A stretch of DNA of 64,000 nt from Omnitrophica WOR_2 bacterium GWF2_43_52 (GTDB lineage Bacteria; Omnitrophota; Gorgyraeia; Gygaellales; UBA12090): the NCBI GenBank assembly GCA_001805445.1, contig MHGF01000028.1:73651-137650 (forward strand), in the 5' to 3' direction. Both the position numbers and the translations under genes were made by a program. The notes under the pieces were generated by a model. It saw only the letters and a program-made list of their open reading frames with translations. It made no database searches and was not told the DNA's origin. Position 1 is the first letter of the stretch. The number at the start of each line of letters is the position of its first letter. Of the stretch, positions 879 through 49,779 are shown piece after piece.

Positions 879-892
879 GCTTTTAAAATAAA

Positions 893-1189
893 TGGGCAGG
901 AGAGGATTCGAACCTCTGAAGCACAGGTGCAACAGATTTCAAGTGCCCTCAAGTTACCTCGAGGCTTGGACTATCTCATCATCCTTTTTGCAGGATGGTA
1001 GGCGCTTAGTCTCTGCACCTTCCCCGATAATCCCTAGATAGAAATAGGCACATATCGGGGCTTGGCTCAGGATTGCCCGCCACAAAACTCTGGCGGGGTT
1101 CCCTGAATTCACCTACTTTTCCACCATGCATTACTGCATGGCGCTGCGTTTACACAGTCTGTCCCCTTTGGCCGCTTGGGTACCTGCCC
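893..1189 (-). tRNA. tRNA-Tyr(GUA) gene interrupted by a 214-nt group I intron in the anticodon loop (exons 1189-1154 and 939-893)
   Basis: 7-bp acceptor stem GGGCAGG/CCUGCCC plus discriminator A. D-arm CCCAAGCGGCCAAAGGGG is nearly identical to E. coli tRNA-Tyr. Anticodon stem ACAGA...UCUGU. Joined loop CUGU|AAA gives anticodon GUA. Long variable arm GCACCUGUGC and T-arm AGAGGUUCGAAUCCUCU. CCA is not encoded. Confidence 0.65.
940..1153 (-). other. Group I intron (self-splicing ribozyme candidate, no ORF) inside tRNA-Tyr
   Basis: Follows exon U and ends with G (omega-G). P1 pairing CUGU/GCAG with U.G at the splice site. P2 hairpin CCAUGCA-GUAAU-UGCAUGG. R-like GUGCAGAGACUAAG, S-like GAGAUAGUCC and Q-like AAUCCUGAGC elements. 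P5 (CCCGCCA...UGGCGGG), P6 (CCCCGAUA...UAUCGGGG) and P8 (AUCCU-GCAAAA-AGGAU) hairpins. Confidence 0.6.
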
Positions 1190-1428
1190 ATAAAAAACTA
1201 TATTCTTTTACCCAATTCTTAATTACATTTAGTAATTTCTTGTCATTATATCTAATATGCACTAAACCGTAAAGCAATTTTCTCTTACTCACATCCACCT
1301 TATTCATTATTATATTTGGAAATTTCCTGGTTATTGTAATTTTTGTCTCAGCATAGAGCTTTAACTATATCTCAATTTAATTTATCTATGTACATATTTT
1401 ACTGAATAATTTATCAAAATTATTTAAA

Positions 1429-16236: not shown

Positions 16237-16644
16237 TTAGAGAAGGATAAATATTTCTTCGGGACATGCCTTATACAATTCTCGCGCTAAACGCTCACAG
16301 TTTTTGTGATCATTGGCTTCACGCAGTTTTTCTATGATACCCTCCTGTAAAGCCAGGGTAATATCTTTTTTATTCTCACAATGTATGAATTTGACTTTAA
16401 TACCTTTACCGTTATATTTTTTGATATTCCCTTTGCCATAGGTGCAACCGGTGGAAAGTTGCAAGCCGTCAATCAAACAAGACTTGGGCTTCTGGCTTGC
16501 TCCCCAAATCTTAACCTCTAATCCGAAATGCGGTTTGGCTTTGATTTTTCTAAGCGCGTACTCTCCCATCAATAGCCCTAAAACTAAATAAGGGCCAAGA
16601 TGCCCATGGAACTCTATCGCCCGCTGTAAAAAAGGTTTCTTCAC
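16237..16644 (-). CDS. FmdE-family protein (formylmethanofuran dehydrogenase subunit E-like domain)
   Basis: FHGHLGPYLVLG motif characteristic of FmdE/FwdE domain; conserved Cys pairs; 135 aa. Confidence 0.65.
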   Translation of the reverse strand: MKKPFLQRAIEFHGHLGPYLVLGLLMGEYALRKIKAKPHFGLEVKIWGASQKPKSCLIDGLQLSTGCTYGKGNIKKYNGKGIKVKFIHCENKKDITLALQEGIIEKLREANDHKNCERLARELYKACPEEIFILL

Positions 16645-16653
16645 TTCTATCCC

Positions 16654-17325
16654 CTAACCTCTATTTATCATTCCCGCTAAATACCCTGCGCCAAAACCGT
16701 TATCTATATTTACCACCGCCACACCCGGAGAACAGCTATTGAGCATGGTTAAAAGCGCTGAAAGCCCCTTAAAATTCGCCCCGTATCCGATGCTAGTAGG
16801 CACGGCAATCACCGGAACCGCAACCAGCCCCCCAACCAAACTTGGCAATGCCCCTTCCATGCCCGCGGCGACAATAATTACTCTTGCCTTGCGTAACAGA
16901 TTCTTCTTATGCAAAATCCTATGCACCCCGGCAACGCCGACATCATAAAGGCGCCCAACCTTTGCTTGCATAAGCTCTGCTACCACTGCCGCTTCTTCTG
17001 CAACGGGAATATCTGAGGTTCCGGCGCTTATCACAAGGACAAAACCGCGTAACTTTACTGAAGCTTTGCCTTTCTGATACGCAATCTGGGCATGAGGATT
17101 GTAGTATAAGCCAGGAAATGCCTTTTTTAGGTAGGAATACGCTGTCGCCTTAAGCTTAGTAATTAATAAAACCTGGCCTGATTGAACAATCTTCAACGCG
17201 ATTCGTTGAATCTGTTCATTTGTTTTGCCGGGCGCGTAGATAACTTCAGGAAAACCTCTTCGTCGCGCCCTGTCTGTGTCTATTTTGGCAAACCCAAGCT
17301 CGCAATAGCCTTTATTTTTACGCAT
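16654..17325 (-). CDS. larB: Nickel-pincer cofactor biosynthesis carboxylase LarB (PurE-like)
   Basis: PurE-like segment VIIVAAGMEGALPSLVGGLVAVPVIAVPTSIGYG...VVNIDNGFGAG. Confidence 0.75.
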   Translation of the reverse strand: MRKNKGYCELGFAKIDTDRARRRGFPEVIYAPGKTNEQIQRIALKIVQSGQVLLITKLKATAYSYLKKAFPGLYYNPHAQIAYQKGKASVKLRGFVLVISAGTSDIPVAEEAAVVAELMQAKVGRLYDVGVAGVHRILHKKNLLRKARVIIVAAGMEGALPSLVGGLVAVPVIAVPTSIGYGANFKGLSALLTMLNSCSPGVAVVNIDNGFGAGYLAGMINRG

Positions 17326-17380: not shown

Positions 17381-17680
17381 TTATCCCCTGCTGATAATCA
17401 CCAAAAGCGTCACGATAATCGCTATAGCAATAATATAAAAATCGTAAAAGTAAAAAAAATCCCTCAGGCGTTCGCCGGATGTAGAAACGACTTTCTGAGG
17501 GGATTTCTGGTTCTGAAACGTCTGCAAAAGCTGGTCAATCTGATCTTTCTGAAACCTCAAATAGACTCCTCCTACTTTATAGGCTGGAATCTCCCTCTTC
17601 TCGGCAAGATCAATCACCTCTTTCTCGCTGATTCCTAAACTATAGGCTACTTCTCGTATCGTTAATAACTTCTCAGCCAT
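17381..17680 (-). CDS. Excisionase/MerR-type HTH protein with C-terminal transmembrane helix
   Basis: HTH_17-like LTIREVAYSLGISEKEVIDLAEKREIPAYKVGGVYLRF; hydrophobic tail FYFYDFYIIAIAIIVTLLVIIS. Confidence 0.5.
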   Translation of the reverse strand: MAEKLLTIREVAYSLGISEKEVIDLAEKREIPAYKVGGVYLRFQKDQIDQLLQTFQNQKSPQKVVSTSGERLRDFFYFYDFYIIAIAIIVTLLVIISRG

Positions 17681-18188
17681 TACCTATTCTCCCTGCAGCA
17701 AGCCACTCATCAATAGCCTTGCGCTCGAATTTCCAACTCTCCCCATCTTTAAGCGCGGGAACCTTTCCTGTGCTTGCCCATTCTGTAATCAAGGGTAATT
17801 CTACCTCCAAATATTTGGCTAACTCATCAATACTAAAATGATCTTTAAGCATGTGGCAGGTGCCTTCAAACACCGCGCCTTCATTAACAACCAGCCTCGC
17901 GGTCCTTGCCTTGATTTCAACTACTGCGCTCGGCAAAAGGATGAGTTTTTGTTTGGCCAATATATCACCTTTTAGCCTGCCGGCAATAATAATTTCATCA
18001 CCAATAAGGTGCGCGTTGACTATGGCGTTTGGGCCGATAACAAGGCTGCCCTTTGTCTCAAGCGTACCTTCAAATTTACCGTTAATCCTTAAGTTCACCG
18101 GGTCGCGAAAGGTAAGGCTCCCAGACATAGCCGCATCAACATCAAGAATCTTCTCCACATCCTGCCTGTGCTTGTCTTTAAATGACAT
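17673..18188 (-). CDS. Bactofilin domain protein fused to C-terminal excisionase-type HTH
   Basis: Beta-helical bactofilin repeats (LVIGPNAIVNAHLIGDEIIIAGRLKGDILA...), then FSIDELAKYLEVELPLITEWASTGKVPALKDGESWKF. Confidence 0.6.
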   Translation of the reverse strand: MSFKDKHRQDVEKILDVDAAMSGSLTFRDPVNLRINGKFEGTLETKGSLVIGPNAIVNAHLIGDEIIIAGRLKGDILAKQKLILLPSAVVEIKARTARLVVNEGAVFEGTCHMLKDHFSIDELAKYLEVELPLITEWASTGKVPALKDGESWKFERKAIDEWLAAGRIGNG

Positions 18189-18269
18189 GGTTACCTCCTG
18201 GTTTTATCGGTTTTTCCTCGCCTGGCCCGATGCCAGGCATTTCTGGATAATGCCAGAAAGGAATAACGA

Positions 18270-18713
18270 TCACCCTTTGGGGTGTTTATCGCCAAATATC
18301 TTATTTTCCAGGCGCCTCAAAAACATAAGTGTTAACAACACTATTACCGTCGTCGCGATGGCGGCGGTATAAAAACCACAACCCACCGCCAGGCCTAAGG
18401 CCGCGACGACCCACAGGCTTGCCGCGGTGGTTAACCCGCGGATTTCCTCGCCATATCGGATAATCGTACCCGCGCCTAAAAAGCCAATTCCTGTGATAAC
18501 TCCCGATGCAATCCGTGATGGATCAACGGCAACTTTATCTTTATATATATCAAAAATATAAAGTGATGTCAACATAATCAATGTTGAACCGACACATACA
18601 AGAATATGGGTGCGTAAGCCAGCTGCCCTGCGATGCAGCTGGCGTTCTAATCCTATGAGGCCGCTTACCAAAACCGAAATAAGTAACCTGATAATAATCT
18701 GGGTATTACTCAT
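18270..18713 (-). CDS. mgtC: MgtC/SapB family membrane protein
   Basis: LLISVLVSGLIGLERQLHRRAAGLRTHILVCVGSTL motif. Confidence 0.8.
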   Translation of the reverse strand: MSNTQIIIRLLISVLVSGLIGLERQLHRRAAGLRTHILVCVGSTLIMLTSLYIFDIYKDKVAVDPSRIASGVITGIGFLGAGTIIRYGEEIRGLTTAASLWVVAALGLAVGCGFYTAAIATTVIVLLTLMFLRRLENKIFGDKHPKG

Positions 18714-26009: not shown

Positions 26010-26218
26010 AGAAATTTGAACTTTGACACTATGTGTAAACGTACCAATTGTCCCGGCCCTCGATAAGCTCGGTCGGGATCCCGCTAAAGCGGGAAAAAAG
26101 GCTAACTAAGGGTAACCTTGGGGCGCAAAGCTACCTGTCCGCCAATCACTATGGCGGATAGAGGAGCTGCCAAGCTGGTGAAAAACCTCAAAAATGCCTT
26201 TTTGAGGTTTTTTGTTTG
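26010..26218 (+). ncRNA. Structured leader / candidate riboswitch or sRNA: several hairpins, then intrinsic terminator (26184-26218)
   Basis: Hairpins CCCGGCC...GGTCGGG, CCCGC-TAAA-GCGGG, TCCGCCA...TGGCGGA; terminator AACCTCAAAAA-TGCC-TTTTTGAGGTT-TTTTGTTT; contains GGGGCGCAAAGCUACC. Confidence 0.35.
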
Positions 26219-26292: not shown

Positions 26293-26622
26293 ATGAACAC
26301 GGTAACAGCCATTCGGATTATGTTCATCGCGCTTACCCTTATGCAGTCAATGATAGATACTGTGTATGGGGGGGATTCGGCTTCGGTAAGGGTTTCCTGC
26401 ATTATTCCCTCAATTCCCGGGGTCAATGCGCCGCTTCTTGACACACTATCAACGCAACAAGAAACTCAACCGCTAACGGAAGAAAAAGAAACCCAAGTAA
26501 TACAAGAGGAAACCCAAGAGAAAAAACCAGGATGGCTGCAACAGACTACGCAGGTAGCAGCGGTAGAGAAAGAATCGGGGAAAACACAACTCGTGGCTAT
26601 TGATACTTTTTACAGCCGCTAG
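26293..26622 (+). CDS. Small secreted/TM hypothetical protein (Thr/Gln/Glu-rich tail)
   Basis: Strong RBS AAGGAGG 7 nt upstream of ATG; hydrophobic N-terminus. Confidence 0.55.
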   Translation: MNTVTAIRIMFIALTLMQSMIDTVYGGDSASVRVSCIIPSIPGVNAPLLDTLSTQQETQPLTEEKETQVIQEETQEKKPGWLQQTTQVAAVEKESGKTQLVAIDTFYSR

Positions 26623-29552: not shown

Positions 29553-30440
29553 TCATTTTAACTGGCCAACCCTGTTGACCTTACCGTTATAGCCAAATTC
29601 TATTTCCGCTTCTTTAGTAATAATCGGGCCCCTGCCTAAGCCGGCTTCTTCCTGGGCTTTTCCTATGTCAACAGTTACTACCATATCATAGGCCCCTTCA
29701 GGTATCGGCTCGTTATGGATATCCCAGTTTGCCTTAAGCTTAGCTGTATCACCGGGAAATGTATACGCCTTATTAAATCCCGAGCGGGCATAGACAACGC
29801 CTTTTTTATCTATAACGTGGAAGGTGCCACCTGCGGTAATATCCACGTTACCGGTATTCTTAACATCAAGCTCTATCTCAAGCCTGTTTTTGTAGGGTTC
29901 TCTTTCTACGCTGAGGTTATCTATAATTCCTTCGCGTTTGGTTGCCCCTTTAATTTCTACATACACTATCGTCCCCACCCTGACCGTCAAATCAATGGCG
30001 GCACGGTCTTCTTTCGCAGGCTCTGCCTGGCCAAAGACGGTTTCATGGAACAAGACAGCATAATAGCCGCCTTCCACATCTTTATCCGGGACACTAATAG
30101 TATAATGTATTTTTTGCTGTGCTTGGGGAGGGAGGATAAATTCCTGCGGGGTAAATTTTATCCAAGGGGCGCAGGAACGTTGGGTAGAGCCCGCGGGGAA
30201 GAATTCCTTGGCGCCATCAGCGCCGGGGGCATAGCGCCAGTCTTCAAGGTATAAACGGATACTTCGTGTTTCTGAACTAGGATTAGAGAGGACCAGCTCG
30301 CCAAAATATTTCTCACCCTTAGCAATAACGTGCCGGACCTTCGGCTGGCTCATTACCGGCAGGTCTACTGCCCGGGAAAGATTGGTAAAGCTGACAAGAA
30401 AAAAAGATGCAATAAATACTATTTTCTTAATGCTTGGCAA
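29553..30440 (-). CDS. Periplasmic PapD-like pilus chaperone candidate (probable TTG start at 30440)
   Basis: Signal peptide; KYFGELVLSNPSSETRSIRLYLEDW resembles chaperone N-domain; AAGGAGA RBS 7 nt before TTG. Confidence 0.45.
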   Translation of the reverse strand: MPSIKKIVFIASFFLVSFTNLSRAVDLPVMSQPKVRHVIAKGEKYFGELVLSNPSSETRSIRLYLEDWRYAPGADGAKEFFPAGSTQRSCAPWIKFTPQEFILPPQAQQKIHYTISVPDKDVEGGYYAVLFHETVFGQAEPAKEDRAAIDLTVRVGTIVYVEIKGATKREGIIDNLSVEREPYKNRLEIELDVKNTGNVDITAGGTFHVIDKKGVVYARSGFNKAYTFPGDTAKLKANWDIHNEPIPEGAYDMVVTVDIGKAQEEAGLGRGPIITKEAEIEFGYNGKVNRVGQLK

Positions 30441-30460
30441 AAATCTCCTTTCCATTTTTT

Positions 30461-30755: not shown

Positions 30756-31367
30756 TTACGGAGCAAGGGTTAAGGTTACACTACCGGTATACGTTCCACC
30801 CGGCTGCGTGGCATTAATAGGTCTTACCCCCGGGTTATCCGTAGTATTTCCTGTGCCTATGCCATAATAGATTCGTAACCATCCCGTTGAATTAGTGCCA
30901 AGTATTTGGGCCTTAGTAAATGTTGCCGCTGACCCAGTTGCATTGGCATAGCTTAATTCAGCCAAAGGAGTAAGAACACTCGTATTACTACTAAGCTGTC
31001 GGATAAAGTCAACATTGATGTTATTATTAAGAGTTGCGTTACCATTGGCCACGTTTGTACGCGCATGCGTAAGCGTCCAGGCATTCCCGGTATTATCAAC
31101 TACCCCGCAATCTACCGCATAATAGGAAGTGGGGAGAAAAATACCAAGAGTTGAATTATAGGTCAAGGTTCCGAAATCAATGCTGGTTGCATTTGCCCAA
31201 GTGGTGCCAGTAACCCTAGAAACTGTCAAATTCAATGTGCTTGATGTTGGAATAACCGCTCTTACGGTTACTGTCTGCGTGCCGCCGGCATAACAAAACA
31301 AAGGCACCCCTACTAATAACGCCCCAATTATCAGGGCAAATATTATATCACCTGTCTTTTTCTTCAT
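30756..31367 (-). CDS. Secreted spore-coat-U (SCPU)/Csu-type pilin-like protein
   Basis: Signal peptide, Thr/Asn/Gly-rich beta protein, N-terminal TQTVTVRAVIP and C-terminal GGTYTGSVTLTLAP like Csu/SCPU subunits. Confidence 0.5.
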   Translation of the reverse strand: MKKKTGDIIFALIIGALLVGVPLFCYAGGTQTVTVRAVIPTSSTLNLTVSRVTGTTWANATSIDFGTLTYNSTLGIFLPTSYYAVDCGVVDNTGNAWTLTHARTNVANGNATLNNNINVDFIRQLSSNTSVLTPLAELSYANATGSAATFTKAQILGTNSTGWLRIYYGIGTGNTTDNPGVRPINATQPGGTYTGSVTLTLAP

Positions 31368-31480: not shown

Positions 31481-32893
31481 TTATATTTCTAACAAAGAAT
31501 AGCTAATCTTTGTCGAATAATCTCCTGCCTTGACATCCATCGGGCTGGCTAATTCATAAACAGCCCTGAATTTATCCGATGAACCCGCGTCATCTGAAAC
31601 AAACAAAACTACATCTCCCGGACTTACCTCCTGGCTCTGAGGAATCTTTAAGACTCCCTTCGTTTCCATTGCCTCGGTCTTTACGGTAAAATATTTCGGC
31701 TTTATCACATTGCCTTCTTTATCAGACAAGGCCGCGATAACATTCTGGTTGACCTGATATTTTTTTCCTGTATTAGTCTTAATTTCGATAACCACCTCAT
31801 TTTTTTTCGTTCCTTCGCCGGGCTTAATATCACGAAACTCTATCCCCGCTCCGGGTTCCTGAGGGGTAAGTATAATATCAAAGACCTGTTCATTCTCTAC
31901 TTCCAGCTCCAGTGTTTTACGGTCAAGCTCTATCCCCATTTCTTCAATACTGTATTGCAGGCGGGAACGGTATCTTCCTGCCCGGCTAACCTCTGAATCT
32001 TCCAAACGATACCTTATGCTAAATCCGGCATCTGCTTCACCAGTGGGTTTTGAGGTATAGACAACCTGAGGGCTATCCGACAATACTCCTGGCGCCGGAA
32101 CCGTGCCAAGCTTTACTCCGGAGACTTCTATAGCTATTATTTTGGGCTCAAGAGACTTACCTTCTACGGTTTCAAGGGGCTTAAGCAGGGTCTGTTTTAT
32201 AGTAAATGGTTTTGTATGGCTTCCATTGAGTGTAACGCTAACATCGCATAGTTTCTTTTCTTCGCTCTTTGAATTAAGGTAAATAACGCTTGAGCCGCTG
32301 GCTGTGGTTACCTCAAGAGATGGCTTCATTGCTGCCTCATCAGCCTTTACTATTAAAATCACATTCAAGATTGTAGAAATTGAACTTTGCCCGGAGCCTA
32401 CGGGAATAAAGGTAAATCTCATCTGCCCGCGGTATAAGTCAGGAGTAATTCCTTGCGGGGCTACATACGTATATATTAAAGTAAAAGAATCGGGAGAACC
32501 GTTTTGGTTTGAAGTATAGAGTACAGAATTAGTGAGCGCTTCGGGGTTAACCTTTAACCTGCCGAATCTATTGGTTCCTGACAGGCCGGAGACTAAAAAA
32601 CTACTCCAGGGAATCTCACTTCCTTTGGCATTACGCAGAGCCGAAAATGGCTCCTGGCGTATCTCGTATTGCGCGCTTGTGCCTAATATCTCAACATCAA
32701 CTTCGCTATTGACTTCACGATAGAGGGAACTGCCCTGAGAAAAGCTCAACTCCTGAGCGCCGGAATGAGGCCTTGCGGTAAGAGAAACATCGGCAAAACA
32801 ATTAGGATAGAAAAGGAGAAAAGATAAAAAAAGACCCACACACACACTTGAAGCCTTCAATAAATAAGGGTATTTTATTTTCATGGATTTCAC
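31481..32893 (-). CDS. Secreted 470-aa protein with SCPU-like C-terminal motif (tip/adhesin-like subunit candidate)
   Basis: Signal peptide; ends GDYSTKISYSLLEI; beta-rich. Confidence 0.4.
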   Translation of the reverse strand: MKSMKIKYPYLLKASSVCVGLFLSFLLFYPNCFADVSLTARPHSGAQELSFSQGSSLYREVNSEVDVEILGTSAQYEIRQEPFSALRNAKGSEIPWSSFLVSGLSGTNRFGRLKVNPEALTNSVLYTSNQNGSPDSFTLIYTYVAPQGITPDLYRGQMRFTFIPVGSGQSSISTILNVILIVKADEAAMKPSLEVTTASGSSVIYLNSKSEEKKLCDVSVTLNGSHTKPFTIKQTLLKPLETVEGKSLEPKIIAIEVSGVKLGTVPAPGVLSDSPQVVYTSKPTGEADAGFSIRYRLEDSEVSRAGRYRSRLQYSIEEMGIELDRKTLELEVENEQVFDIILTPQEPGAGIEFRDIKPGEGTKKNEVVIEIKTNTGKKYQVNQNVIAALSDKEGNVIKPKYFTVKTEAMETKGVLKIPQSQEVSPGDVVLFVSDDAGSSDKFRAVYELASPMDVKAGDYSTKISYSLLEI

Positions 32894-45276: not shown

Positions 45277-48200
45277 TTAATTATAGAGCATATCCGGCGC
45301 AAGCAAGGCGCGACGAAGCTCAGGGCTGCTTTCTTTGCCCGCAAGCTCCTCAAGCCTGCAGGCATCACTGAGAGTAATGATGATATCCTGAAGCCTTCCC
45401 TGCAATTCATCCCTCTGATAGCAGGCCGCGATAAACTCAAGGATGCGTAAACCATTGGGGATAATCCCTGCCTTCATGGTTGCCTGAATCTGGCTGAACT
45501 CATTATCAAGGTCTATCAGCTCTGCGTCGCGTAGTACGGGCAAATCTAGATTCAATCCCGCAAAACTCCCCCTTCGCTCAAGCGTAGTGGCGTCATTCAT
45601 TATTGTATCCCTAAAGTCCAATCCGCCGCGCTTTTCTCCACGAAAAGAGGTTTCTGTATCCAACGATAGAGCGCTTGAACTCTCCGCGAAGGCACTCGCT
45701 GCGATACTCGCAAAGCCTAGACTAAAACTAATTATTGTATATTTTTCTCTCGGCAGCTCATATCCTGTGTCCCTACCGAGGAAAATCCTTGTAATCCGTA
45801 TAGCCTCCCTTAAAAAATCCACTTTAAAGCTTAAGGCTTCCTTGGAAATATGCTCCTTGAGCCATTCCTCCTCTTCAGGGCGGAAATAGTTTCCTTCTTT
45901 TATTTTTTCAAAGAAATGTTCAAGCCTGTCATTATTCTGCGTAAGCTCTTGCTCCACTTTCTCGTCAAGCTCTAGTTCCACCTTAAGAGCCATTACAGAA
46001 AAATATTCTTTCATTACTTTGAGCAAAAATTCATCCCTTTCTTGCATCTGAACATCTTTTTCTATTTCTTCACTCTTCATTTCCTTGACCCAAGAGGCTA
46101 AAAAGTCCCCTCTCGTATTTCTGCCATCAACAGACGTTAAACCATCAACTAAACTGATAATAGCTTTATTCTCCGCGTAGCGCGCGTTATCAGCAAGCTT
46201 TTCAGTTATCACTTGTTTTAACGCGTCAACCATTATAAATCCTGCTTTTTCTCCGTACGCGCCCAAAACATCAATAATCACATCTTTCTGGCATTTAAGA
46301 AGCGGCGGGGCTACCGATAGATAAGGAGCGGATAAGATTTCAGAAACGCCCGTTTTTTTCTGCCAATTTTTTACTATAGCTTCGGCTTGGACATACTCTA
46401 CACGTATCAACTCGCCTTTCTTTTCTAGCCTTTTCTTACCCAATAATTCATTCAACCAATTGAGTACGTCGTTATTTTTTGAGGTATACTCACTATTTAT
46501 TATTACAGGCTCTTTGTCCTTAGCAGCTTCTAATAGCTCGCTCATCCCGGCAATTATTAACGCCTTATTTATATCCAATGTTTTTCCATTGACATTAGTA
46601 ATTATTCGCGCTTTCTTCTCTAAAACAAGCACCCCCACTACTCTATCCCCTGCCCCTAAGGCAATACGTATCCTGTCCGATTTTTCACCCGATAGATAAG
46701 CTACGGTAACTTCCCGATTATCAAATGTGTAAAGCTCAACAGGCCTTTCCAATGTCGTAAGGACAAAATTCATAGCATTCTCGGCAGAGGCATAATGAAA
46801 TTTATACGGCCTTTTGTGAATAGGTACCGATAAAGTCCTCCAGGTCAGCGGTGAGGCGGAATAGGCTTTCAGTGGCGACGATACCTGGGATTGTTCCCAA
46901 TAATACCTTATCACCTTCAGCATCCCCTCTTTTACTTTCCTCGTTTCTGGAGTGCCGATAACTATACCAACCTTAGGCCAATCAAACCGGGCATCCTTAA
47001 AAAATTCCATAAAACTCCCCAGCGGTTCAAGCCCCGTCTCTTTATTCTCGGCTTTCCAATTCATCCCTATAGTTAAAATTTTATTCTTCTTCGCTCCTTG
47101 TCTAAGTGCCGCCTCTACAAAGGGAGTAAGTGCCACAACTGTTTTCGCGGACTTACCCAAAATCGCCCCATCTACAGAAGACAGGCCAAGTATCTCATCA
47201 GCATTCTGCGCGGTTAAGCCTCCTACAAAATAAACATCAAGATCAATGTGCAAGGCTTTCTTGAGTGCGTTTTTTATGACGGAATGCTCTTTTTCAATCT
47301 GCTCTCTTTCACGAACCTTTTCTTTAGGCAATTCGCGCGGTTCATAGGCAATCCTTAAGCCAATGGCACCTGCGTCCTCTGCCGTTATCCCTTCTAGAAT
47401 TTCCGCTATATCTTTCTCAAGAATCTCATTAGTCTTTCCTTGTTCCCTCTGCCAGGATACTTCACCAAGAAAAAGAATAGTTCGCTTTATCGGATGGTTC
47501 TTCGCAAAAATAACAGTTTTCTTCAACTGTAGATTCGTTATTGTGTTTGCAACATAACGGGCCTTAGCTGCCAAGCTTATAGCATTGAGGCCTACATAAG
47601 TATTGCTCTTAAGAGAAAGGCTTTCAATCCCTTCAAGATTTACCCCTTCTGCTTCTAACGTTTTTCTCCATTTTTCATCTCTTTTTGCTTCAGTTTTATA
47701 TTCCGGATTATTGAATATATTACCCAAAGCGTTTTCAATCCTTTCCTCAATCTCTTTTCTCCATTCCGGATGATTAGCAATGATCCCGTCTAATAAACTG
47801 GCATTGCCAATATTAGTCCGCCCAGTACGCGATCCCTCTGGAAGTGATATAGTATTAGCCACGACAAGAAAATTATCCCTTATTCCGAGCGGCAAGGCAG
47901 AGGGCTTCCTCCCTAACGCCTTATTTTTGACATCAACGCCTTCAAGCTCCTGAAGCGCTGACTTTGTTCCATCTGCGGCTGTTCCCTTCAGGACAAACGC
48001 GCGAATCTCTTCAGAAAGGCGAATGAATCTAAATCCCAATTCAACATCGTGCAATGTATTCTGAGCTATTGAGCTTAATTTATTTGCCGCGGAAACAAAA
48101 TCATTGTTATAGAAATATCCTTTCAGTTCTCTTTTATCTTCTTCGTCTAAATAATTCTTACGCTCTAATTGGGCAACAAACCTATTTATTTCGCTTTCAT

Positions 48201-49779
48201 AGCGGGCCATACGCAATAACCATACGCGTATCTTTTCCCATTTTGCTTTATCATCATCGTTGATACGCGGAAGTATAATAGTTTGTTGAATTAAATTGCT
48301 GAGATAATTACAAGATATTATTTCCCCCGCCTCTTCTCTTTCCTTTATATCCCACGCGTATCTTACACCGAGATTCCTTATTTCAACTTTTATCTCATCC
48401 ATGGTCAATGGCGAAGCGGCCAAGGCTAAAGATTCTTCTGTAGTAATGTGTGGGTCAATAATTTGCAAATTACTATCAAAGGCTGCTACATTGTCCCTCT
48501 TTACAAGCCACTGAGTAACCTCTGGATTTACTCCTCTGTACCCTCCACCGGTCAGTGGACTTGAGTTGCCCACAGCGCGATGAGTAGACGTAAAAATATT
48601 TTCTATCCCCTCCAAAGTAAGCCCTCCGCTGGTATAGTTCCGGACACTATGACCGTAAGGCGTATACACAGAATCCTTGATAGTGTACTCACCTTTATTA
48701 AAAGAATTCTTGTATTGATTAAAGTAGGTGGTTTTATCCCAGTTCTCTTTGGAGGTGAGGTTAGTGAGATTACGTGAATCTATAAGCTTACTATAGTCTG
48801 GTGTGCCGGTAAGCGGGTTAACCGGTTCACTGACTGACCCGTTCACTGGCGGTTCACCAAAACGAGCCTTAAACCATCGTGAGAGTATCAGCGAATAATA
48901 CACCTGTCGTAGTTTTGCGTACCGTTGGCTTGAGTTTACTTCTCTGGTAAGTTTGGGAATTATGCTTTCCCTGATAAGCTGAGTAGAATATTCATTAAGT
49001 TCTTTGAGCCTTTTGTCATTAAAATTATACTGGTGACTGGCGACAGGAGACTGGAGACTTTCTTTCAAATAGTCTTCTTCCAGCAATACCTTAAGCGTTG
49101 CCTTATACACATACGCAGAATCATCTGTCTCTCTAACGATAATTTCATTGGGCACTATCCATGGGCGGGTTAAGGTGGGGATGGTAATATTCTCAGAACC
49201 AAATAATTCCCCTGCCTTTTTATAGAGCTTATCCCAGTAAGCCTTGCCTTCCGGGGTTTGTGGTGAGGTAAGGCTTGCGGTATCCTTCTTAAGCTGTAAA
49301 TCTGCCTCTAAGAATACCTTGCCTATATCAGTCATCTCTAACTCTGGGTCTATGATATTCTCAGGGGCATCCGGCCTTAGGTTTACCCAAAAGGTATCAT
49401 TCGGTAGGGTTACTCCTATCAGAAAGTATCTCATTAACTCCTGAGCAGTTTCCTTGAGTACACTATCTTCCTTTTCTGGTGACGTGCCTGCCCCGACCGA
49501 AGCGTCGGGGGTGACCTGGTGACCTGGTGACGTGGTGACCTGGTGACCTGGTGACCTTTCATAGTCTCCCTTGTCTAAGAGTATCTTATAGCTGTTATTC
49601 AGGCTGTCATAGGAGAAATATCGTAAGTGCACAGGCCGAAAGATATCAGGCTTAACAAGAGTAGTATGCAACTGGCTCAGATAGCTTGAAAGGTTAAGTT
49701 CTCCTGCGGCATAGATAACCCCGCCCTGGTTAAACAGCAAGCCGATAGCTACTACTATTGAGATTACCCTACGTAACAT
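45277..49779 (-). CDS. Giant (1500 aa) secreted protein containing a degenerate triosephosphate-isomerase-like barrel segment; otherwise unknown
   Basis: Signal peptide; segment RTILFLGEVSWQREQGKTNE...IAYEP...VYFVGGLTAQNADEILGLSSVDGAILGKSAK aligns with TIM beta5-beta8; followed by ILTIGMNWKAEN (GNWK-type motif) and VGIVIGTPE. Confidence 0.65.
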   Translation of the reverse strand: MLRRVISIVVAIGLLFNQGGVIYAAGELNLSSYLSQLHTTLVKPDIFRPVHLRYFSYDSLNNSYKILLDKGDYERSPGHQVTTSPGHQVTPDASVGAGTSPEKEDSVLKETAQELMRYFLIGVTLPNDTFWVNLRPDAPENIIDPELEMTDIGKVFLEADLQLKKDTASLTSPQTPEGKAYWDKLYKKAGELFGSENITIPTLTRPWIVPNEIIVRETDDSAYVYKATLKVLLEEDYLKESLQSPVASHQYNFNDKRLKELNEYSTQLIRESIIPKLTREVNSSQRYAKLRQVYYSLILSRWFKARFGEPPVNGSVSEPVNPLTGTPDYSKLIDSRNLTNLTSKENWDKTTYFNQYKNSFNKGEYTIKDSVYTPYGHSVRNYTSGGLTLEGIENIFTSTHRAVGNSSPLTGGGYRGVNPEVTQWLVKRDNVAAFDSNLQIIDPHITTEESLALAASPLTMDEIKVEIRNLGVRYAWDIKEREEAGEIISCNYLSNLIQQTIILPRINDDDKAKWEKIRVWLLRMARYESEINRFVAQLERKNYLDEEDKRELKGYFYNNDFVSAANKLSSIAQNTLHDVELGFRFIRLSEEIRAFVLKGTAADGTKSALQELEGVDVKNKALGRKPSALPLGIRDNFLVVANTISLPEGSRTGRTNIGNASLLDGIIANHPEWRKEIEERIENALGNIFNNPEYKTEAKRDEKWRKTLEAEGVNLEGIESLSLKSNTYVGLNAISLAAKARYVANTITNLQLKKTVIFAKNHPIKRTILFLGEVSWQREQGKTNEILEKDIAEILEGITAEDAGAIGLRIAYEPRELPKEKVREREQIEKEHSVIKNALKKALHIDLDVYFVGGLTAQNADEILGLSSVDGAILGKSAKTVVALTPFVEAALRQGAKKNKILTIGMNWKAENKETGLEPLGSFMEFFKDARFDWPKVGIVIGTPETRKVKEGMLKVIRYYWEQSQVSSPLKAYSASPLTWRTLSVPIHKRPYKFHYASAENAMNFVLTTLERPVELYTFDNREVTVAYLSGEKSDRIRIALGAGDRVVGVLVLEKKARIITNVNGKTLDINKALIIAGMSELLEAAKDKEPVIINSEYTSKNNDVLNWLNELLGKKRLEKKGELIRVEYVQAEAIVKNWQKKTGVSEILSAPYLSVAPPLLKCQKDVIIDVLGAYGEKAGFIMVDALKQVITEKLADNARYAENKAIISLVDGLTSVDGRNTRGDFLASWVKEMKSEEIEKDVQMQERDEFLLKVMKEYFSVMALKVELELDEKVEQELTQNNDRLEHFFEKIKEGNYFRPEEEEWLKEHISKEALSFKVDFLREAIRITRIFLGRDTGYELPREKYTIISFSLGFASIAASAFAESSSALSLDTETSFRGEKRGGLDFRDTIMNDATTLERRGSFAGLNLDLPVLRDAELIDLDNEFSQIQATMKAGIIPNGLRILEFIAACYQRDELQGRLQDIIITLSDACRLEELAGKESSPELRRALLAPDMLYN
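49509..49556. repeat. Octamer tandem repeat GGTGACCT x6 (one GGTGACGT) inside the giant ORF (encodes SPGHQVTT SPGHQVTP)
   Basis: Seen directly; seventh degenerate unit at 49477-49486 across a CCCCGAC-CGAAG-GTCGGGG hairpin. Confidence 0.8.

Follow-up and report, generated by a model that had tools for sequence, protein, structure and literature searches.

The analyzed stretch of DNA, a 64,000-nt part of contig MHGF01000028.1 of Omnitrophica WOR_2 bacterium GWF2_43_52 (hereafter the window), carries on its minus strand two overlapping genes, termed A and B, whose products probably form a two-protein cytoskeletal module, conserved across Omnitrophota, an uncultured phylum. In profile, fold and interface residue, protein A qualifies as a true bactofilin, to which a domain of the winged helix-turn-helix type (wHTH) is fused at the C-terminus, while protein B is a small membrane protein with a homologous wHTH domain at its N-terminus. 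Taken together, A is probably a membrane-associated bactofilin polymer that displays tethered wHTH domains, and B its stoichiometric integral-membrane partner with the same domain. An earlier note on this DNA, made from the letters alone, had described two overlapping genes here, and the open reading frames (ORFs) agreed with it to the nucleotide: both lie on the minus strand and overlap by 8 nt, the B start codon falling inside the final codons of A (ATGGCTGA). Translation of B is coupled to that of A, and a GGGAG sequence is located upstream of the start of B. The genes and their segments are given below, with the evidence for each in brackets; pLDDT denotes the predicted local distance difference test score of the AlphaFold2 models.

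17673..18188, minus strand: gene A, bactofilin-wHTH fusion, 171 aa (ORF)
18194..18199, minus strand: Shine-Dalgarno sequence AGGAGG, 5 nt 5′ of the A start codon (sequence reading)
18150..18188, minus strand: A residues 1-13, disordered basic/hydrophobic N-terminal tail (pLDDT <50 for residues 1-11)
17850..18149, minus strand: A residues 14-113, bactofilin β-helix core including the hydrophobic end residue F107 (profile and Foldseek)
17832..17849, minus strand: A residues 114-119, short linker between β-helix and wHTH (AlphaFold2 and spacing counts)
17691..17831, minus strand: A residues 120-166, wHTH of HTH_17 or BldC-Xis-MerR-like type (AlphaFold2, Foldseek, HTH_17)
17381..17680, minus strand: gene B, tail-anchored membrane protein with N-terminal wHTH, 99 aa (ORF)
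17510..17674, minus strand: B residues 3-57, wHTH, a homolog of the A domain (AlphaFold2, Foldseek, hhalign)
17480..17509, minus strand: B residues 58-67, disordered, basic and poorly conserved linker (pLDDT <50 for residues 59-63)
17444..17479, minus strand: B residues 68-79, conserved aromatic/acidic juxtamembrane helix (helix 68-78 in AlphaFold2)
17387..17443, minus strand: B residues 80-98, C-terminal transmembrane helix, tail anchor (AlphaFold2 helix 80-98 and hydropathy)

Domain architecture of A and B

The domain content proposed in the earlier note was borne out by Pfam, each domain scoring above its cut-off. A carries Bactofilin (PF04519) at residues 14-111 with 74.3 bits against a cut-off of 27.9, followed by HTH_17 (PF12728) at residues 119-166 with 36.0 bits against a cut-off of 27, and B carries HTH_17 at residues 5-53 with 36.3 bits against the same cut-off. 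The NCBIfam model TIGR01764 'excise', with a cut-off of 28.8, was also passed by both proteins (40.5 bits for A and 36.5 bits for B). The AlphaFold2 model of A, built on an 82-sequence alignment, reached a pLDDT of 87.7 and a predicted template modeling score of 0.77; its β-helix core, with a pLDDT above 90, is predicted to have six turns. The family profile of A matched the bactofilins TtBac of T. thermophilus (6ria, E 1e-8) and BacA of C. crescentus (2n3d, E 6e-8), and by Foldseek against PDB the core was superposed on BacA (2n3d) and TtBac (6rib) with template modeling (TM) scores on the target of 0.82 and 0.76, respectively.

The residue on which bactofilin polymerization depends is retained as well. 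Replacement of F105 in TtBac abolishes polymerization, as does the equivalent F130R in BacA (PMC12448750). In the profile alignment TtBac F105, which corresponds to F130 of BacA, aligned with F107 of A. Among the 84 family members, taken as non-identical A-B pairs, this column holds F in 45, L in 37, M in 1 and I in 1, and so is hydrophobic throughout, with F or L in 82 of the 84. Judging from its bactofilin identity and the conserved end residue, A is expected to polymerize. Its N-terminus, MSFKDKHRQ, belongs to a family that mostly begins with MAFKKK[L/M/I]EE and also with MALRDRK, and the global consensus of the bactofilin membrane-targeting sequence (MTS) is MFSKKKK (PMC12448750). The N-terminal tail of A resembles an MTS, and A may bind the membrane through it.

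The HTH that the earlier note had placed at the C-terminus of A proved to be a winged HTH both in the AlphaFold2 model and by Foldseek. The domain comprises helices at residues 120-127 and 131-140, a hairpin at 146-155 and a helix at 156-164, and its matches in PDB included BldC (TM score 0.74-0.78), RdfS, Pukovnik Xis, RacA and CbpM. The spacing between β-helix and wHTH is 12 residues in 81 of the 84 family members and 19-24 in the other three, and in a second Omnitrophota subfamily the linker is up to ~20 residues longer. A shares the β-helix core and the polymerization residue with canonical bactofilins such as C. crescentus BacA and T. thermophilus TtBac, and its N-terminal tail looks MTS-like, but whereas these end in a short disordered C-terminal tail, A ends in a folded BldC/Xis-type wHTH and its gene is locked to B.

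For B, the AlphaFold2 model (84 sequences, pLDDT 76.9) showed an N-terminal wHTH with helices at residues 8-15, 19-27 and 45-57 and strands at 33-36 and 40-44. Foldseek superposed this domain on BldC with TM scores of 0.84-0.89, a root-mean-square deviation of 1.0-1.4 Å and 24-29% identity. The following linker has a mean net charge of +2.8, and over residues 51-68 the mean pairwise identity falls to 0.19; such a basic, barely conserved linker fits a cytoplasmic N-terminus. Conservation is high again over residues 69-82 (mean pairwise identity 0.68), where the juxtamembrane motif ERxxDFFYFxDFY is found with D74, F75, D80 and F81 invariant. The single C-terminal transmembrane helix claimed in the earlier note was recovered both by hydropathy, the best 19-aa Kyte-Doolittle window having a mean of 2.37, and by AlphaFold2 as helix 80-98; for residues 81-99 the pLDDT block means are 93. 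Because in 83 of 84 family members no more than 0-4 residues separate this last hydrophobic helix from the C-terminus, B is classified as a tail-anchored protein, probably of the inner membrane. A coiled coil was predicted by AlphaFold2 in neither A nor B.

The wHTH domains of the two proteins were compared with each other. With hhalign they aligned at a probability of 94% (E 1e-7, 25% identity), while BLASTP found no alignment between them. The two domains are homologous but old paralogs, and a recent duplication was rejected, given that the homology is visible by profile-profile comparison only. A BldC-like head-to-tail contact between A and B was likewise considered and dropped: at the positions of BldC Arg22/Glu16 stand Glu/Glu or Gly/Glu, from which no complementary salt bridge can be derived.

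Conservation and genomic setting of the pair

Using a threshold of E <= 1e-3, 1,339 homologs of A were found. Among the matches listed, 120 of 120 carried both domains in 164-173 aa, and those with source names were Omnitrophota. A second, more divergent subfamily of 173-192 aa with a longer linker is also from Omnitrophota, and in all 120 listed matches of each of the two homolog searches the fusion is a single ORF of 164-192 aa. A scan of one genome per species returned 486 relatives of A, and the 80 retained were all labeled Omnitrophota or Omnitrophica, or came from generically or probably wrongly labeled bins. For B, 369 homologs of 94-149 aa were among the matches listed. The survey for which the earlier note had called thus yielded more than 1,300 homologs, and the concern it had voiced, that the fusion might be a frameshifted product of two genes, is answered by the single ORF in every listed homolog.

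The pairing of the two genes was found to be tighter than that note could know. Each of the 86 loci examined has a B homolog directly downstream of A on the same strand, the gap ranging from -8 to 174 nt (median ~13 nt), and the pair is kept where both flanks differ. The common block reads YibQ-TsaD-MgtC-A-B-LarB-(FmdE)-AcsC. In locus L085, A-B is followed by ExbB/ExbD; in L086 it stands between an aminotransferase and ACPS/YdjC/SurE; and in L087 the order is TsaD-A-B-SNase-TilS with a 4-nt overlap, both L086 and L087 being without MgtC. In the window itself, the gene upstream of A is the following.

18270..18713, minus strand: MgtC-family membrane protein, 147 aa (Pfam MgtC, 150 bits)

MgtC is located directly upstream of A in all 75 loci of the close subfamily, and its stop codon sometimes overlaps the start codon of A. 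It may be an accessory to the module; an obligatory role as third component was rejected, the gene being absent in L086 and L087. The 81-nt spacer between MgtC and A holds a perfect 7-bp inverted repeat (GCCTGGC ccgat GCCAGGC, 18220-18238), and most relatives have a far shorter spacer. A terminator-like hairpin at 18271-18284 (minus strand) overlaps the end of MgtC. In the scan for promoters and terminators, the counts were within ~1.5 standard deviations of the shuffled expectation. Downstream of B, a LarB-like AIR-carboxylase-family gene lies at 16237-17325 (minus strand); in most Omnitrophota loci such a gene, often with a small FmdE-domain gene, stands between B and an acetyl-CoA synthase cluster of AcsC, RACo, CooC, AcsD and methyltransferase genes.

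The window as a whole is housekeeping chromosome, with GatCAB, CtpB, TsaD, acs/Wood-Ljungdahl genes, TilS, FtsH, FolP, DacA and PdxJ, and no integrase, recombinase, methyltransferase or phage gene was found within at least 15 kb on either side of the pair. Plasmid records that cover 80% or more of A were absent, as were phage matches. The positioning of plasmids, which the earlier note had named beside that of chromosomes, is accordingly not upheld for this chromosomal housekeeping locus. Based on conservation, coupling and chromosomal context, rather than being a mobile function or an artefact, A-B is therefore a core, vertically inherited unit of Omnitrophota.

In databases the two proteins are labeled only as 'polymer-forming cytoskeletal protein', 'excisionase family DNA binding protein' or 'helix-turn-helix domain-containing protein'. 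A full-text literature search turned up neither a report of a bactofilin that carries an HTH nor one of Omnitrophota bactofilins, and the arrangement of a bactofilin-wHTH with a membrane-anchored wHTH partner was found in no paper searched.

A yet more divergent Bactofilin-HTH_17 fusion of 187-188 aa, with the N-terminus MKFFSQKKRN, was observed in another lineage, where it ends a conserved cluster (L088, 1-5850, and L089, 1-6711). The cluster runs from a Volactin-like actin (366 aa) through a ~200-aa protein of no assigned function, a ParA/MinD-like ATPase (465 aa, with a C-terminal AMPK1_CBM domain) and 216- and 217-aa proteins, likewise without assignment, to the fusion. The next gene in L088 encodes a signal-peptide or membrane protein that is not B-like, and this fusion has no partner resembling B. 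This cluster shows that a bactofilin-HTH also occurs in an explicitly cytoskeletal or positioning context.

Proposed DNA tethering and its alternatives

BldC is the closest solved relative of both wHTH domains by sequence, being found by their joint profile with E 7e-5, and it is also their best fold match (TM score 0.74-0.89); the DNA-binding domain of RacA was among the further fold matches (TM score 0.54-0.64). BldC, a MerR-like protein of Streptomyces that consists of a wHTH only (PDB 6ama/6amk), binds DNA as head-to-tail multimers, as Xis/RdfS-type excisionases typically also do (PMC5859096). Through HMMER and hhalign, the equivalents of its wing residues Arg41, His46 and Arg48 were determined to be K147, W152 and K153 in A and K35, Y40 and R42 in B, and both families conserve these positions as Lys, aromatic and Arg/Lys. 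That the two domains anchor DNA is plausible in view of their kinship to BldC, the nearest relative with a solved structure, and of the retained basic and aromatic wing residues.

On these grounds we tentatively propose that A and B tether DNA to the membrane by a RacA/Noc-like logic that is built on a bactofilin. In such a mechanism, A would polymerize on the cytoplasmic face of the membrane and thereby present a regular array of winged helices, B would add a second, membrane-anchored copy of the domain, and the two together would hold DNA, either the nucleoid or a particular region of it, at the membrane. We infer that A and B cooperate in this. The variable linker of A and the disordered linker of B fit tethered domains that act independently. 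The stronger form of the proposal, in which the Omnitrophota bactofilin filament binds DNA directly through its fused wHTH and serves with B as a phylum-specific device that attaches the nucleoid to the membrane or positions it there, is possible but doubtful.

Several observations weigh against DNA binding. Both wHTH domains are acidic, with a mean net charge of -2.2 (isoelectric point 5.2) in A and -1.2 (isoelectric point 5.7) in B, unlike the electropositive surface of BldC. Arg30 of BldC contacts bases, and its R30A mutant loses binding (PMC5859096). The equivalent residue is E136 in A (acidic in 83 of 84) and D24 in B (acidic in 75 of 84), and the equivalent of BldC Lys33 is Asn or Ser in A and E27 in B. 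In B, helix 2 has the sequence S-E-K-E-V-x-D-L-A-E, of which four acidic residues are conserved, and the exposed N-terminal half of the recognition helix of A is variable, which is unexpected for a conserved sequence-specific binder. No ParAB-like partner was found nearby. The excisionase TorI, we assume, has Asp at the Arg30-equivalent position and binds DNA all the same. The acidic substitutions therefore weaken the case for DNA binding by the wHTH domains of A and B without disqualifying it, and of the two proteins A is the somewhat likelier binder. The earlier note had suggested an anchoring module made of a filament and a membrane-tethered DNA binder; a membrane-attached bactofilin scaffold is well supported, whereas the DNA binding by either HTH is what the acidic domains and the Glu/Asp at the Arg30 position call into doubt. 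A and B differ from BldC and the excisionases further in that neither wHTH is free-standing, that of A being carried on a polymer and that of B on the membrane, and in that they lack a mobile-element context.

Two known systems come close to such a tether. RacA, the chromosome anchor of B. subtilis, resembles the proposed module in that a MerR-like wHTH and a self-assembling region tie DNA to a membrane-associated site, but it uses a coiled coil and DivIVA instead of a bactofilin. Membership of A or B in the RacA family (NF009646) was rejected, as B scored 12.9 bits against a cut-off of 262 and both proteins lack the coiled coil. In the BacNOP-PadC-ParABS system of Myxococcus xanthus, a bactofilin scaffold positions chromosomal DNA (PMC5703909), but there DNA is reached indirectly, by way of PadC as adaptor and of ParB/ParA. 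A ParB-like gene was found neither within ~15 kb on either side of A-B in the window nor in the fetched loci with listed genes, a PadC-like gene is not present nearby either, and the CooC-type ATPase of the acs cluster is the sole ParA/MinD-fold gene in the scanned part of the window. The likeness to bactofilin-ParB scaffolds drawn in the earlier note holds as an analogy only.

The acidic character of the two domains would be accommodated if they served as protein-protein modules without any contact to DNA, with B as a membrane anchor or client of the A filament and the module organizing envelope synthesis, division or a transporter, e.g. the neighboring MgtC, at the membrane. The recognition helix of B offers a conserved acidic surface (E19-K20-E21..D24..E27), the Arg30 position is Glu/Asp in both proteins, the invariant juxtamembrane motif of B suggests a specific interaction at the level of the membrane, and the MerR-fold J-domain binder CbpM is among the fold matches. 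Experimental precedents exist among bactofilins themselves: the HTH protein BacR was demonstrated to bind bactofilins and to be recruited by them to the membrane (PMC13649987), and membrane-bound clients help BacA to attach to the membrane (PMC12448750), and the cytoplasmic tail of PbpC binds to BacA. On the other hand, most characterized wHTH domains of the HTH_17/Xis/MerR type bind DNA, the closest solved relative BldC included, and A and B alike keep basic and aromatic residues in the wing. A purely adaptor role is a serious competitor of the DNA tether, if somewhat less likely. A further parallel is offered by RodZ, whose cytoplasmic HTH reportedly binds MreB (van den Ent et al. 2010). Like B it is said to be a membrane protein with a cytoplasmic HTH that contacts a cytoskeletal filament, but with an XRE-type HTH, a transmembrane helix in mid-protein and a periplasmic domain, where B has an HTH_17 domain and a tail anchor; Pfam detected no sequence relationship of B to RodZ.

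BacR also provides the precedent for a regulatory reading, by which one or both wHTH domains would act as a transcription factor sequestered on the membrane or filament in the manner of BacR-BacE/F, and the pair would tune its own operon or an envelope-stress regulon. This soluble protein of ~210 aa (YhbD, DUF4004) of B. subtilis is tied to BacE/BacF both genetically and by physical binding; it is recruited to the membrane, and bactofilin binding lowers its DNA binding (PMC13649987). In addition, Xis/TorI-like wHTH domains act as global regulators in the Planctomycetes-Verrucomicrobia-Chlamydiae (PVC) group, as chlamydial Euo demonstrates (PMC4989314). In contrast to A and B, however, BacR belongs to another family, and its HTH is not fused to a bactofilin and has no transmembrane partner; neither A nor B matched DUF4004 (PF13171) at E <= 1, and membership in that family was rejected. 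With 0-4 residues beyond its transmembrane helix, B offers neither a sensing domain nor an obvious means of release, and the HTH of A is held covalently on the polymer. Moreover, the gene upstream of A often ends within ~30 nt, and no conserved promoter or operator region is present beside the pair. A regulatory switch is therefore improbable.

Much less credible still is a mobile-element or defense function, in which HTH_17 would mark an excisionase (recombination directionality factor) or a MAD1-type component of a methylation-associated defense system. It is prompted by the TIGR01764 'excise' scores of A and B and by weak matches to NF047737 MAD1, PADLOC mad1 and PHROG excisionase families. 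The MAD1 scores of 44.9 and 43.4 bits stay below the cut-off of 80, however, and the PADLOC mad1 matches are at E 7e-5 and 5e-6. The neighbors, among them MgtC and LarB, are housekeeping genes, and the syntenic position recurs in many species. The excisionase function is effectively refuted by the chromosomal context and the absence from plasmids and phages, and membership in the MADS defense system was rejected on the sub-threshold MAD1 score and the lack of defense genes in the neighborhood. Finally, that A is a frameshifted or mis-assembled join of two genes has next to no chance of being right and is refuted by the recurrence of the architecture, across NCBI, JGI, ENA and Logan assemblies, in each homolog listed, by conservation that continues across the junction and by the confidence of AlphaFold2 through residues 111-160; nothing supports it, and a few database relatives are truncated with nonsense C-termini (P0262, P0263).

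Other features of the window and significance of the pair

Outside the gene pair, several features of the window and of the compared loci were recorded. The strand bias is extreme over 1-64000: of the 59 ORFs that reach 150 aa, no more than one or two plausible genes lie on the plus strand. An ORF of 1,500 aa spans 45277-49779 (minus strand), and the ORFs at 29553-30455, 30756-31367 and 31481-32893 gave no Pfam match. A c-di-GMP-I (cyclic di-GMP) riboswitch (RF01051, 59.8 bits) lies at 26090-26174 on the plus strand amid genes that are essentially all on the minus strand; the next plus-strand ORF after it, at 26293-26622, encodes 109 aa with a hydrophobic N-terminus and no assigned function. 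At 892-1190 (minus strand), a 214-nt group I intron (Rfam RF00028, 93 bits at 947-1163) splits a tRNA-Tyr(GTA) gene at position 37/38 of the anticodon loop; ARAGORN recovered this split tRNA with intron search and missed it in default mode. In one Omnitrophota genome (L086, 2710-2964, minus strand), a small protein with a SWIB domain, a eukaryote-like chromatin-associated domain that also occurs in Chlamydiae, is encoded ~2 kb upstream of A-B.

Bactofilins are widespread scaffolds, and their known links to DNA are either indirect, through PadC/ParB, or regulatory, through BacR. If the DNA binding proposed here is true, A-B would be a minimal two-protein tether of membrane, filament and nucleoid, and A the first bactofilin-class polymer to act as a direct DNA-binding scaffold without a ParB-type adaptor. 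If the two domains do not bind DNA, the pair would plainly exemplify how a 'DNA-binding' fold can be put to new use as an adaptor of the cytoskeleton. Omnitrophota are mostly ultra-small cells, and the phylum-wide occurrence of the A-B pair points to a core cell-biological function in them, so far unstudied.

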